DNA of 64,000 bases from a virus, in IMG/VR virus record IMGVR_UViG_3300048910_000074, one strand, 5' to 3'. Of this stretch, positions 17,192-49,228 are shown piece after piece. Within the stretch, counting starts at the first letter, position 1. Each line of letters starts with the position of its first letter. The translations under genes were made by a program, and so were the position numbers. A model generated the notes under the pieces. It saw only the letters and a program-made list of their open reading frames with translations, ran no database searches and was not told the DNA's origin.

Positions 17192-17635
17192 GGCCTACGG
17201 CTGCCCGGATTGCGGCGTCTCTCCCGGTGATGTCTGCTGGCCCCGTCAAGAGGACGATTCCCCCTGGGCGCACACCACCCGCGTCAAGCTCATGGAGATG
17301 AACATGTACCAGTATTCGGTCGTCCCGGCGTGATCAACGCTCAGATCAAGCGCGTGGGCAGCTGCCCGGTCCCCAACGAGCTGCGCTACTACTCCAAGCG
17401 TGAGGCCGAGGCGAACATCTCGCGCGGCTACCTGGTGTATCAGTGCGGCATGCACTTTCACCTGACCCACCAGGATAATGGCTGACCACATCGACTATGC
17501 GGCTCAGTTCTTCGGGGAGCACGTCCGGTGGCCTGAGACGCCCATCGCGCCGAACGAGTTCCCCTGGGTCGGCCTGGCGATTCTGATGTTTCAATATCTG
17601 GATCAACGCGGGTTCAAAGTCGTTCGCGAATAGGC

Positions 17636-17665
17636 TTGCATTTGTTCCAGGAGCTGTGCCATACT
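17636..17665 (+). promoter_or_regulatory. Class B promoter: TTGCAW/TAGACA -35, TTCYAGGAVCTG spacer box, CATACT -10. Copies at 17636, 18385, 19979, 20281, 22537, 22943, 28800, 29176, 32335, 35712, 42384; partial at 12161 and 38626
   Basis: At least 11 near-identical copies, each immediately before a gene cassette, with SigA-like 17-18 nt spacing. Confidence 0.85.
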
Positions 17666-17671
17666 TGAGCC

Positions 17672-17797
17672 ATGAGCAACACAGACTCCCGCGAGGCCGA
17701 CAAGCAGGCCAAGCAGCAGGGCCGACCGAGGCCGCACGACATCAATCGCAGTAACCCCGAGGAGTTCGGGAAGTTCTACCGTCAGCTTTTCGGCTGA
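17672..17797 (+). CDS. 41-aa leaderless ORF (MSNTDSREADKQ...)
   Basis: ATG 7 nt after the CATACT of a repeated promoter; open to TGA at 17797. Confidence 0.5.
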   Translation: MSNTDSREADKQAKQQGRPRPHDINRSNPEEFGKFYRQLFG

Positions 17798-17799
17798 TG

Positions 17800-18219
17800 A
17801 CAAGCTGGACCACAGACAACTGAACAGTGCATCTGGACCACTGACGTACCACGCAAGTACCCCTGTGAAACAGTCCCTGACGGTTAACGACCACGTCCGG
17901 CGTGCCCGCTTACAACGGGAACATCACGACGGCGATCCCTGAATGAAGGACTGCGGAGGGTGAAATCCGCCGTGAGTGAAGGTGAGGCCTGCCGGTAAGA
18001 GGCCGGATGGCCGAGAGAACAGACAGGTCTAGTACCGAGGGTAGCCGGGGCGTGCGCACAAGCCGGGGAGAGTAGGGAACGAAACTGTCTGGCCAGGTGC
18101 ACCGTTGAGTTGTCTGCAGCAACTCAGGTGGCTCGGATCGCGACCGAACTGCTAGCACGACGGGGGATGGTGCCCCCAGCCGCAAGGCTTACCTGTGTTC
18201 GATTCCGGGGCGTGCGCCA
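17800..18219 (+). ncRNA. Large structured non-coding RNA candidate ending in a tRNA-like T-arm plus CCA
   Basis: No credible + strand ORF in an otherwise gene-dense region; many hairpins (GCGGAGGGTGAAATCCGC, GAGTTG..CAACTC, GGGGGATGGTGCCCCC, AGCCGCAAGGCT); ends GTTCGATTCCGGGGCGTGCGCCA. Confidence 0.6.
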
Positions 18220-18237
18220 CGACAACTGAATCAAGAC

Positions 18238-18301
18238 GCTCGTTGGGGACAATGGCTATGCCGCCCGAGAGGGAGATTCCAGTTCGATTCTGGAGCGAGC
18301 A
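18238..18301 (+). ncRNA. tRNA-like RNA lacking an anticodon loop
   Basis: GCTCG/CGAGC acceptor-like stem, TCCAG-TTCGATT-CTGGA T-arm; CCC-GAGA-GGG tetraloop hairpin at the anticodon-arm position. Confidence 0.55.
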
Positions 18302-18383
18302 GCGTGACGGAGGTCGGTGTCTCCTGGACGTGCTCACCTCAGACGTGGACGTCCATCCCAGTTCGATCCTGGGGCACGCACCA
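18302..18383 (+). ncRNA. Atypical tRNA-like RNA ending ACCA
   Basis: GCGTG/CACGC-ACCA acceptor, CCCAG-TTCGATC-CTGGG T-arm, long TGGACGT..ACGTCCA arm with no canonical 7-nt anticodon loop. Confidence 0.55.
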
Positions 18384-18449
18384 CTTGCAATTCCTTCCAG
18401 GAACTGTCATACTTGAAGGACCAAAGCCACCCACGCGAAAGGCCTCACC

Positions 18450-21400
18450 ATGAGCGCGTTCCCCACCCGATTCGTCGCCATCGCCGAGCAGAACGGCTGG
18501 ACCACCCGACGCCCCGGTTACTTCGGCTGGTGGACTCTGGAATTCATCCGTGGTGACGAGCGCCTGAAGCTGCGCCTGCTCAATGGCAAGCTCACCGCAG
18601 CGGCGCACTACAACGGCTCAGGCGTGCTCCTGGAGATCAAGAAGGACAAGCGCCAGCAGGCCTACAACATCCTGTCCGCCGAGCGTGCGGCATGATCACT
18701 CCGCCCTACGACATCAACTGGCTGCGCGAGCAGTCAGGACAGCGCTGGGACAGCTGCTCGCCCGCCATGTTCATGAAGGTCCTTGCTTGGGCCCTGGAGA
18801 TGCACGACGAACTGGAGAAGAAGTGATCACGGTTCTCGGCATCCTTGGATTGGCGGTGTTCTTCATCGCCTTGGACTACGTCATCGTCCGATCTCTCGGT
18901 GCTGATCCTGACCTGGTCGGCGCGGGTGTGACGCTCATCTTCACCGGTATCGTGATTGCGATCTTGCTGTGATCACCAAGTATCTCGCTGAGATCGATGA
19001 GCGCGGCCATCTGGTCGCCTGCGGCAGCGACAACTGGAAAGTCCTGTTCGTTATCGCCTGCGCCCTCGCACTCATCGCTACGCTGATGTGGTCGTGGTGC
19101 AAGGTCTGCGAGAAATTCGACTCGGGTTGGGTCTTGGTTCAGGCCGGGACTGTCATCCTCATCGCCATCTTCGGCGTCGCCATCGGCAGCTTCTTCGTGG
19201 CTGCCTACCTCACCACAGGGAGCTGCTCGTGACCGAGGTCCTCGGCATTTCTGCCACCCGTGTGCCCGCCACCGACATCAAGGTGGGCGACAAGATCGTG
19301 GTCTTCGGGATGGTGTATTGCACCGTGGAGTGGGTGCGTCAATGGTCAGATGGCGGCGTCTATCTGGCTGGCATACGCAACACCGGGGAGCCGCACGTGT
19401 CCAATCTGTCCGCCGGGGCCAAGATTCCCCGCATCTTCGACATCAAGGAGCAGCCGTGAACGCCATGCAGGCCATCAACCAGGCGTTGAAGGCCAACGGC
19501 TGGGTCGGGCATTCGATCAACGACACCGACATCGGGCGCACGATGGAGTACATCCAGAAGGGCGGCACGCAGCTGCTCTCCATCACCTACCGCATGTACG
19601 GCAGCACAGGCAGCATGCGCCTGTGTCGGGCCCACGGCAAGGACCCCAACGATGGCATCAACTGGGGTGTGGAGCGTGCCACGCTGCACTGGCTCGTGGA
19701 GGACCTGACCAAGGCCGAAGGCGACGTCTGGCAGAGAGTCAAGTCCTTCACCGGCAAGAACAAGAAGGGTCAGCTGATCAAGTTCGCCAAGGAGGGGCTC
19801 AGTGCCGGGGCTAACGTCTGAGCACCGGGATGCACGTGGCCGCATCAAGGCCAAGGCGGTGCTGCGGGTGCCGGGTGTCTACCGTGACCTCACGCCCGAG
19901 CAGCGGGCGGCGTGGAATAAGGCCAGCACGGCGGCGCTGGAGCTGATCGAAGTGTTCACGGAAGTGCCGAGAACGGACTTGCAATAAGTTCCAGGAGCTG
20001 TCATACTTAATGCATGACGAACACCACCGCCGCCCGCGCCACCGCCAACCTTGATCTTGACCTGATTGCCCGTCGCGGCCAGGCTCCGGTCCACATCGTC
20101 CGCCTCGCCCGCGTCATCTCCGACATCTTCGCCACCAACGCCCGCGTCGCCGTCAAGGCCGCTTTCACTGTCGATGCCACCGGCACCTACACCAGCACCT
20201 CGCTGCGCCGCCTGACCAACGCGGGTGGCTACACCTACGACATCGTCCGCTCCGCTGTCGACGTCGCTGAGGCTGACGACTAGACATTCCCTCTAGGACC
20301 TGTCATACTAGATGCACACCCACGGAACCAAGGAGAACACCATGTTCAAGTTCAACGAGATCGCCACTCGCACCGTTGTCGAGATGGATGCCGAGGGCGA
20401 AGAGCACCCCATTGGCACCGAAGAGGTGCAGATTCTGGGCGTCACCAAGGTGGCCGGTGAGGTCATCGTGCGCCCGCTGAACAGCGAGGACCGCATCATT
20501 GTCCACATCCGTCACCTGGACGAGGTGGCGTGATGACGGACACCGAGGTCATCAAGCGCCAGATCGTCCGGCGTCAAGAACTCCTGGACCAGGGCATCGG
20601 CCTGGGCGAGTTGGACGAGTACAACGTGCTCACTTTGAACATCGCCCAGAGCGCGTCCAAGCTGCTGCGTGCCGTCGAGGATGTCATCGCTCTGCGCGAC
20701 GAGCTGCTGGCGACCCCGGACGGCCCTGCCGCTCCGGTCGCCAAGGCGTTCGGCCTGGAGATCGATCGCGCTCTGAAGGGGCAGCGAGGATGACCGAACC
20801 ACGCAGAGGCCTGACATGGTCCAAGCGCTGGCACATCGTGGACGAGACCAAGTCCAACCCGCGCTACGACATGGCACTGTGCGGGGCGTACCTGTACAAC
20901 GCCGAGAAGGAGAAGGCCTGCTTCCGGGGTAACAGGATGCCCGAACACCTGCAGCGCATCATCGACGGCACCGCCAAGAGCGCGGGTGACTGCAAGCTGT
21001 GCAACAAGAGCGCGGGCAGGAAGAGCCTGAGTGATTTGTTGGTGGACGAGAAGATGGCCGACCAGATCGGCAAGCTCATCTTTAAACGTACCCAGCTGGT
21101 CGACATGGACGCTAGCGACCTGGCCTGGGACATCATGGCCTTGATCACCAAGGAGGCGAGCAGCTGATGTGGGCCGTCTTCCACACTCTCGCCACGCGCC
21201 ACGGTGACGGCCGGTATCTCGCCTCGGTCAAGCTCGATATCCTGCCCGACGTCGGCAAGTTCGTTTACGTCAACGGTCGGCTGCGTCAGGTGGTCGGCCA
21301 GGAATGGCACATCAATGGGGAGAAGACGTTCGAGCGCGACGACATTGTGCTGCGACCGCCCTACGTGATTGTGAAGGTGAAATGATCTGCCCCGGCTCTC

Positions 21401-48033: not shown

Positions 48034-48056
48034 CGCTACAACTGAATAGTGACCAT

Positions 48057-48143
48057 GCCTGTGTGATGGAATTGGAAGACTTGCCAGATTCAGAATCTGG
48101 TGTCCGTGAGGGCGTGTGGGTTCGAGTCCCACCACAGGTACCA
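48057..48143 (+). tRNA. tRNA-Leu(CAG)
   Basis: CCAGA-TTCAGAA-TCTGG, long variable arm, TTCGAGT, encoded ACCA. Confidence 0.9.
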
Positions 48144-49156: not shown

Positions 49157-49228
49157 GCGGTATGGCGCACGGCGCGCTAGGAGCCTCTAAACCTCCAACG
49201 CTGGGTTCGATCCCCAGGTACCGCACCA
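49157..49228 (+). tRNA. tRNA with CTA anticodon (amber suppressor/Pyl-like)
   Basis: GCGGTAT/GTACCGC-ACCA, GGAGC-CTCTAAA-CCTCC, CTGGG-TTCGATC-CCCAG. Confidence 0.75.

Follow-up and report, generated by a model that had tools for sequence, protein, structure and literature searches.

A family of structured noncoding RNAs with a covarying self-complementary loop in large high-G+C phages

Positions 17815-18114, on the plus strand, of IMG/VR virus record IMGVR_UViG_3300048910_000074, a high-G+C phage contig from root metagenomes of which a stretch of 64,000 nucleotides (nt) was analysed (the window, below), belong, with near certainty, to a family of structured noncoding RNAs (ncRNAs), and this family is widespread in large high-G+C phages. 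The conserved unit of about 300 nt, as delimited by alignments, covariance-model matches and covariation, extends from the 5' strand to the 3' strand of its outermost helix, P0, and folds into a long closing stem that opens through a three-way junction into two arms, one of which contains a large near-invariant internal loop, whereas the other ends in a loop where eight nucleotides stay self-complementary while their sequence changes. There is a good probability that these RNAs constitute a new, previously unclassified class of stand-alone ornate phage ncRNA that forms symmetric homodimers, and it appears likely that such homodimers would be held together via this apical loop. The initial annotation of this DNA had proposed a structured ncRNA of about 420 nt at 17800-18219; a large structured ncRNA is indeed present, but its core covers only the 300 nt or so indicated above. 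The parts of the RNA described below, the ORF and promoter-like motif before it and the tRNA-like modules after it are on the plus strand.

The closest relatives come from cultured phages. When 17600-18450 was compared by blastn with 50,697 phage records, 206 records matched, all of them mycobacteriophages, and the matched part corresponded to window positions 17815-18114, at about 77% DNA identity. A search with the core alone recovered 217 phage records, with at least 80% of the core covered in 202. The RNA is carried by 202 Bixzunavirus records, and every Bixzunavirus and Myrnavirus record searched has it; over the 8 kb around the RNA, the window and the same mycobacteriophages have only a 95-nt piece of a HIT gene in common. 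In the Myrnavirus phages Phabba and Myrna, the RNA sits in an unannotated gap (590 nt in Phabba), and in Bixzunavirus, the annotation over it consists of one or two hypothetical proteins or is blank. Three-way and four-way alignments resolve into invariant blocks separated by inserts that are whole hairpins, and across the family, the size ranges from about 230 to 400 nt.

One of the invariant blocks, M1, supplied a key of 18 specified bases, CTGACGGNTAACGACCACG, for searches in metagenomes, where an earlier pattern, a block specific to the window and Bixzunavirus, had returned no matches. In IMG/VR, the key occurs at 34 loci, 33 of which carry the family; in JGI/ENA metagenomes, it occurs at no fewer than 120 loci, and more than 100 metagenome contigs were counted as relatives. 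Among GTDB genomes, there were 20 matches with one true member, an Acidimicrobiales metagenome-assembled genome contig identical to an IMG/VR phage contig; 11 of the 20 fall in an unrelated Caulobacter/Alsobacter repeat and the remainder are chance matches in coding sequence. About 17 chance matches to the key are expected in 596 Gb. A second block, CCCUGAAYGAA, served as an additional screen and is also present in 139 of the 179 key matches examined. After filtering, 84 nonredundant members (less than 92% mutual identity) were retained, on contigs that, where their size is known, measure 16-170 kb and bear names that include soil, sediment, microbial mat and TARA ocean.

The structure of this stretch is shown by covariation and not by the density of hairpins that the initial annotation had stressed: the minimum free energy (MFE) has a z-score of -1.3 for the whole stretch and of about 0 for the 3' domain, no better than chance, so that hairpin density offers no basis on which to argue for an RNA. 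Covariation, the absence of which was to count against the initial proposal, is strong across the family alignments. The closing stem is formed by P0, where 17815-17825 (GACAACUGAAC) pairs with 18104-18114, and P1, where 17827-17836 (GUGCAUCUGG) pairs with 18093-18102, so that the two 5' strands occupy 17815-17836 and the two 3' strands 18093-18114. Compensatory changes in P1 are apparent among the window (GCAUCUGG/CCAGGUGC), Bixzunavirus (GCAUCUGG/CCAGAUGC) and Phabba (GAACCAGG/CCUGGUUC), as well as across 20 members. A scan for long-range helices detected the closing stem in most members, with a sequence that varies from member to member and a median of 12 uninterrupted base pairs (bp); in 22 of the 84, the stem reaches 16 bp or more, and the longest is 31 bp, compared with a maximum of 12 bp in shuffled flanks. 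With RNAalifold, 20 compact members yielded 46 pairs, 35 of which show double-sided changes.

Two covariance models, one of arm 1 with 134 positions (R1) and one of arm 2 with 84 (R2), each match the window once, R1 at 17836-17984 (117 bits, E = 5e-24) and R2 at 18015-18097 (70 bits, E = 7e-18). R1 has 75 matches in 100 sources; the second tandem copies at loci L096 and L108 are among them, and the Caulobacter loci are without a match. In the 68 distinct rows of arm 1, 92.4% of the cells are standard pairs, compared with 68.1% after shuffling (a value reached by none of 500 shuffles), and when the partners are slid by 1-3 columns, only 22-40% are paired; the covariation score is 0.526 versus 0.137, and both sides change in 20 of the 27 pairs. 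P1, P6 and P7 covary too, and an all-against-all scan of mutual information returned the same helices again and, beyond them, P2b alone. The abundant U-G pairs, such as UG:37, would be C-A on the opposite strand, which identifies the plus strand as that of the RNA.

Arm 1 (17836-17984), as defined by the R1 match, pair counts on the 68 distinct sequences and mutual information, is a stack of P2 (17839-17842 with 17981-17984), P2' (17847-17852 with 17972-17978, UACCAC with GUG(A)GUG), P2b (17860-17863 with 17958-17960, CCC with GGG) and P3 (17871-17876 with 17948-17953), beyond which the near-invariant loop strand M1 (17877-17895, CUGACGGUUAACGACCACG) lies opposite the near-invariant strand M2 (17933-17947, CGAUCCCUGAAUGAA). 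The final CG of M1 pairs with 17933-17934, and the internal loop accordingly comprises 17 x 13 nt, 17877-17893 (CUGACGGUUAACGACCA) and 17935-17947 (AUCCCUGAAUGAA), with the consensus CUGACGGYUAACGACCA // AUCCCUGAAYGAA. The arm is tipped by the P4 hairpin (17897-17932), which is variable in length and sequence and in relatives spans from 18 to more than 100 nt. A hairpin insert between arm 1 and the junction (17985-18012) is private to this phage, being a gap in all other rows of alignment A3. M1 is identical in every member found save for one Y position, and the neighbouring columns are invariant in alignments A3 and A4. Some 30 near-invariant unpaired nucleotides between two covarying helices, with CUGA..ACGA in both strands, might be taken for the catalytic core of a ribozyme, self-cleaving or other and possibly dimeric; however, no Rfam ribozyme family matches, nothing indicates a cleavage site, and the invariance is in part a matter of ascertainment, so that we assign this explanation a rather remote chance.

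Arm 2 (18015-18097; R2 match, pair counts and mutual information) begins with the junction strand GAGAAC and continues through P5 (18020-18026 with 18085-18091), P6 (18033-18036 with 18075-18078), a symmetric internal loop resembling loop E (18037-18044, GAGGGUAG, opposite 18067-18074, GGAGAGUA) and P7 (18045-18048 with 18063-18066, CCGG with CCGG) to an apical loop of 14 nt (18049-18062), which reads GGC-GUGCGCAC-AAG and contains a palindromic 8-mer at 18052-18059, the candidate site of kissing-loop dimerisation. R2 has 89 matches, which represent 74 distinct sequences, 70 of them with a 14-nt loop. In all 70 distinct loops of this size, the 8-mer at the same offset is self-complementary, which none of 2000 column shuffles attained, even though ten different 8-mers occur: GUGCGCAC (33 loops), GUGGCCAC (23), GCGGCCGC and GGUGCACC (3 each), GCUGCAGC and GGUGCAUC (2 each), and GUUGCAAC, GGUGCACU, GAUGCAUC and GAGCGCUC (1 each). 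At the centre of the 8-mer stands GC in 36 loops and CG in 34, and no other dinucleotide occurs there; positions 2/7 and 3/6 alternate among U-A, C-G, G-C, A-U and G-U; self-complementarity needs G-U in three loops; and the flanks of the 8-mer covary as well (A..G in 45 loops, C..A in 21). The four odd loops still contain GUGCAC, CUGCAG or UUGCAA. In a subtype without arm 2, UGCA hexaloops are found within a long insert of P4 and within a hairpin that follows directly downstream; a self-complementary apical element is thus kept even as its place changes.

Adjacent nucleotides of this kind are unable to pair with one another within one chain, and the pattern therefore points to pairing between two molecules. 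The same argument, from a loop palindrome that covaries, has been applied to L9.3 of OLE and L21a of GOLLD alongside cryo-electron microscopy (cryo-EM) structures of these RNAs (Kretsch et al., PMC12286853), and the apical loop described here likewise remains self-complementary while its sequence changes. The loop carries the hallmark that has been cited in favour of intermolecular kissing loops in OLE and GOLLD. Most of the 8-mers are also perfect palindromes at the DNA level, for example, GTGCGCAC and GTGGCCAC, as would suit an operator or a restriction-type site, in which case the conserved blocks would be protein-binding DNA; but the three loops that depend on G-U, helices that tolerate G-U on one strand only and long-range compensatory pairs that span more than 250 nt all speak for RNA, and we give a DNA element very little credence.

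At two or three loci, L096 (4930-5413), L108 (2150-2635) and L151 (1492-1842, where arm 2 only was searched), two copies of the RNA stand in tandem. The second copy lacks an exact M1 key, and the loop palindrome is the same in both copies of L096 and L108, so that heterodimers could form there.

The architecture of arm 2 also recalls 5S rRNA, with which the phage RNA shares paired ends, a three-way junction with two arms in the same order, and a symmetric loop-E-like internal loop (GA-N-R-GUA opposite GAG-R-GUA) that leads, via a short helix, to an apical loop; 5S rRNA itself has about 120 nt, with helices I-V and loops A-E. An RNA of this shape might act as a mimic of 5S rRNA, whereby the loop-E arm would bind L25/Ctc, L18 and L5 and divert or regulate ribosome assembly. 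In a comparison by eye, the window reads CCGAGGGUAG...GGAGAGUAGGGAAC where the E. coli 5S rRNA reads CCGAUGGUAG...GAGAGUAGGGAAC; Bixzunavirus has CCGAUGGUAG, and the window shares GAGAGUAGGGAAC with the E. coli sequence. Against this idea, the 5S model of Rfam yields no match at E<=10, even on 321 nt; GGGAAC is limited to one subgroup, the family consensus being GGAGGGUAGG; arm 1 is far larger than the helix II-III arm of 5S rRNA and unrelated to it in content; a 14-nt palindromic loop takes the place of the tetraloop-sized loop D; one subtype has no arm 2; and the loop E motif is a recurrent module rather than a mark of homology. We therefore treat the loop-E likeness as reuse of a motif and not as homology, and consider a 5S mimic unlikely.

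Dimerisation through a palindromic loop has a familiar precedent in the dimer initiation site (DIS) of HIV-1, where kissing dimers form through a purine-flanked loop whose 6-nt palindrome (GCGCGC or GUGCAC) differs by subtype. In the phage RNA, the palindrome has 8 nt (often GUGCGCAC or GGUGCACC) and the loop flanks are GGA/GAU or GGC/AAU; the DIS dimerises a packaged RNA genome, whereas here, we are dealing with a small RNA of a DNA phage, and no homology is implied. The pRNA of phage phi29 employs two different complementary loops to build its ring on the prohead and is not known outside phi29-like podoviruses, whereas the RNA described here occurs in myovirus-type genomes, and its one self-complementary loop predicts a closed dimer. 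The two are alike in that pRNA, too, is a phage-encoded structured RNA and oligomerises by intermolecular loop-loop pairing (cited in PMC12286853). OLE, a large, ornate, conserved ncRNA, is an RNA-only symmetric homodimer with a covarying loop palindrome (GGCC, GAUC, AGCU) that was taken as evidence of a kissing loop (PMC12286853), and the phage RNA displays the same palindrome signature, here on 8 nt. However, OLE has about 600 nt, is encoded in the chromosomes of anaerobic Firmicutes and acts at the membrane together with Oap proteins, whereas the phage RNA is phage-borne, has about 300 nt and shows no sequence or structure match to OLE in Rfam. GOLLD and ROOL are phage-encoded, likewise without an assigned function, and often lie beside tRNA genes, and their multimers are held by symmetric kissing loops (PMC12286853); they differ in their size (580-800 nt), their multiple pseudoknots and their assembly into 8- to 14-mer cages. 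With a single self-complementary loop per molecule in the main subtype, a dimer is predicted for the phage RNA rather than a cage of the GOLLD/ROOL type. The new family groups in style with these ornate phage and bacterial RNAs, whose most telling trait, a self-complementary loop that covaries, it has as well, but is unrelated to them in sequence and fold.

Comparison with catalogued families bears out the statement in the initial annotation that the class could not be assigned by eye. We ran cmscan with the 4227 families of Rfam 15, at the gathering score on the 64 kb and at E<=10 on 1.1 kb and on 321 nt: no family, GOLLD and ROOL included, matches the window core at E<=10, and none matches any of 12 other members at E<=1, whereas on the wider stretch at E<=10, there is a single chance match to a miRNA. 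Of the two options in the initial annotation, membership in a class such as GOLLD or ROOL and a class of its own, the results thus favour the second. Nor did Rfam report tmRNA, RNase P RNA, 6S-Ms1 or Y RNA, and ARAGORN called no tmRNA. A possible relation to Y RNA was dropped given the absence of both a conserved neighbour and an Rfam Y-RNA match, and likenesses to hammerhead, cobalamin, T-box, k-turn and T-loop elements that were noticed by eye did not survive inspection or the Rfam scan. In the literature, we found no paper that contains the conserved motif as text and none on ncRNAs of cluster C phages.

The Caulobacter/Alsobacter repeat that was encountered with the M1 key (L041, L044, L045, L047, L049, L051-L053, L057-L059) is a separate matter. 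It is at least about 350 nt long, highly conserved and multi-copy (at least four copies in one Caulobacter chromosome), sits in differing gene contexts and holds CTGACGGATAACGACCACG followed by a long hairpin. A link to the phage family was rejected, as R1 and Rfam find nothing in the repeat and, as given above, some 17 chance matches to the key are expected, and the shared 19-mer is treated as coincidence. The repeat may be an uncatalogued ncRNA or a miniature inverted-repeat transposable element.

Most Bixzunavirus records annotate the region as protein-coding, for example, as gp68 and gp69 of phage I3, with ORFs (open reading frames) of 87-116 amino acids (aa) in many of them. No such ORF exists in Phabba or in the window, where the core has stops in all three frames; the initial description of 17800-18219 as free of ORFs is accurate insofar as none there is conserved and the plus strand has only ORFs of 25 and 39 aa. 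The frame of I3 gp68 is not conserved, its similarity to relatives being broken up into short segments that lie in different frames, and in several curated records the region is without annotation. Furthermore, helix substitutions are compensatory and length varies by whole hairpins. We see next to no prospect that the region is coding. The hypothetical ORFs that overlie the RNA, in I3 gp68 and the 5' part of gp69 and in about 200 genomes the corresponding ones, are probably either spurious or assigned a wrong start; NC_067270.1, at 21110-21729 (L002 1551-2170), is one such record.

The tRNA-like 3' domain of the initial annotation survives in its letters and not as a part of the family. GTGCAC (18098-18103), GTGCGC (18212-18217), GTTCGATTCC (18197-18206) and CCA (18217-18219) are all where they were said to be, and 18119-18220, local to this phage, can be drawn as a four-way fold (module 1) that ends in GCCA and has a weak T-arm and, where a tRNA has its anticodon arm, an arm capped by GCAA. 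However, the fold has a z-score of 0.7, the T stem has three of five pairs, and the would-be anticodon arm is closed by a GCAA tetraloop, so that the 7-bp acceptor, the T-arm with five pairs and a TPsiC loop, and the 7-nt anticodon loop of a tRNA are not all to be found; there is no Rfam tRNA match at E<=10, and ARAGORN calls nothing by default and, at an 80% threshold, makes a call in another register (18139-18218), with mismatched acceptor and T stems. The proposed closure by GTGCAC and GTGCGC meets with a further conflict: GTGCAC is the 3' strand of P1, a helix supported by covariation, and the two helices would compete. Module 1 is the first of three tRNA-like modules directly downstream of the RNA; the other two, which abut one another, have cloverleaf-like folds, module 2 (18237-18303; ARAGORN at 80%) with 67 nt, a shortened, non-canonical anticodon loop and a 2-base anticodon, and module 3 (18302-18383; ARAGORN at 90%) with 82 nt, a likeness to tRNA-Leu(CAG) and an encoded ACCA.

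GOLLD, which contains a pseudo-tRNA, lies in tRNA arrays, Mycobacterium included (PMC6582537), and a single RNA of about 420 nt with an integral tRNA-like 3' domain, possibly a relative of GOLLD or ROOL, would fit the three modules that follow the RNA here, as well as the T-arm-like elements downstream of the RNA at L013 (where there is also a weak tRNA-Sec-like match), L015, L022 and a few other loci. The tRNA-like domain is, however, absent from the Bixzunavirus and Myrnavirus homologues, the closest in culture, and from about 90% of members; of 75 members, 7 have a T-arm-like element in the 400 nt downstream, and 2 have one upstream. Together with the competition for the P1 strand and the failure to match GOLLD, ROOL or tRNA models, this renders the longer RNA quite improbable. 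A loose link with tRNA-like genes exists, as for GOLLD, but a tRNA neighbour is only occasional and does not define the family.

Elsewhere in the window, 24776-24848 is a tRNA according to Rfam (40 bits) that is not in the default ARAGORN list, and conversely, 49157-49228 is an ARAGORN tRNA with anticodon CTA (labelled Pyl) that Rfam does not list at the gathering score; the latter would be an amber-suppressor-type tRNA in a phage tRNA cluster. The sequence GACAACTGAA, which starts the RNA (17815-17824), recurs exactly at 18221-18230, right after module 1, TACAACTGAA is found at 48037-48046, 10 nt before the tRNA-Leu at 48057, and many family members begin with UUGACAACUGAA. GACAACTGAA may be a processing or recognition site; sites of this type in the window, with one mismatch allowed, number 6 compared with 3.6 expected, which is not above chance.

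Around the RNA, about 590 nt without a credible gene separate a 41-aa ORF (17672-17797) from a promoter-like motif at 18385-18413, and neither ARAGORN by default nor Rfam at the gathering score reports anything in this interval. The initial annotation placed the RNA downstream of a promoter, and the motif, TTGCAT-N18-CATACT, is present at 17636-17665 and recurs at 18385-18413; the 41-aa ORF, however, intervenes before the RNA, which, unless excised, would form the 3' portion of that transcript. In Phabba and Myrna, TTGCAA-N17-TACACT (or TACAAT) ends 8-20 nt before P0 (8 nt in Phabba), and about 100 nt after the Phabba RNA, there is a 10-bp GC hairpin with a U-rich tail; in Bixzunavirus, TATAGT lies about 19 nt upstream of the RNA. 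Tools that scan for promoters and terminators, a sigma-70 consensus scan included, called none of these motifs, which we accordingly regard as putative signals. Sites of the form TTGCAN-N17/18-[CT]A[TC]ACT with a CCTTC.AGGA.CTG spacer occur in the window (17636-17665 and 18385-18413), at L005 (1191-1220), at L008 and at L025, and the motif common to the window and the Myrnavirus phages suggests a shared phage-specific class of promoter.

The position of the window RNA, after the 41-aa ORF with no visible terminator in between and before the tRNA-like modules, and the start of a Bixzunavirus gene about 40 nt after the RNA, could also be accommodated by a cis-acting element, such as a leader, riboswitch, stabiliser of a 3' untranslated region or processing cassette, that serves its neighbours rather than acting in trans. 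Yet across 75 loci, there is no conserved gene on either side, the largest real family of neighbours being present at 9; the RNA is closed on itself by a long stem and occurs in the tandem copies described above; and in Phabba, it has a promoter-like motif and a terminator-like hairpin of its own. A role in cis is, in our estimate, improbable.

With a stand-alone RNA as the preferred reading, a tentative picture can be sketched. The long closing stem would let the RNA be excised from its transcript, for example, by RNase III, and where tRNA-like modules follow, RNase P or RNase Z might trim the 3' side. Two molecules would pair through the apical loop to form a symmetric kissing-loop homodimer, as has been demonstrated for OLE and for bridges in GOLLD, and the invariant internal loop would be the working site that binds a host or phage partner. 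A dimeric protein-binding scaffold or decoy, made early in infection, is our favoured guess. The broader proposition, an RNA-only symmetric homodimer or higher assembly that large actinobacterial phages make early and in which the invariant loop is a new catalytic site or one that binds a ligand, protein or RNA, is a serious possibility, if one that we stop somewhat short of calling probable, and any one specific function is rated well below even odds.

Several considerations weigh against this reading or limit it. The dimer is deduced from sequence patterns alone, and a loop bound by a dimeric protein would give the same palindrome pattern, as would intramolecular pairing with another palindromic loop, which is possible in the short subtype. 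The function, the partner and the processing enzymes are guesses. M1 was the search key, and its invariance is partly due to that selection; the arms have been put to a stricter test than the junction and P5; and, as already indicated, the folding energy of 17800-18225 is not unusual (MFE z = -1.3). The family may already be present, without a name, in a published collection of viral candidate RNAs with 10,006 entries (PMC10690425). For the window DNA, there is no RNA run on record. In two wastewater libraries labelled metagenomic RNA-Seq, exact short contigs were found only over 17806-17955 and 18086-18242 of the 1.3 kb compared, stretches that correspond to the RNA and tRNA-like module 1, and diverged relatives there differ mainly in P4; these contigs, with depths of 3-12 and from libraries that had been retrieved by means of this same stretch, were rated as probably DNA and given no weight.

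Large ornate RNAs, such as OLE, GOLLD, ROOL and raiA, are among the least understood of conserved RNAs, with few classes known and functions that are open despite cryo-EM structures. The family described here adds a compact class of about 300 nt, in which the fold is supported by covariation and the sign of self-pairing is exceptionally clear. About 200 mycobacteriophages that are in culture and amenable to genetics carry this RNA under the label of hypothetical proteins; the annotation of an entire phage genus is thus corrected, and the role of such RNAs for the phage becomes directly testable in Mycobacterium smegmatis. If these RNAs are indeed homodimers with a new site, phages such as Bxz1, Alice and Myrna would make an RNA of this kind accessible to direct phage genetics in that host for the first time.

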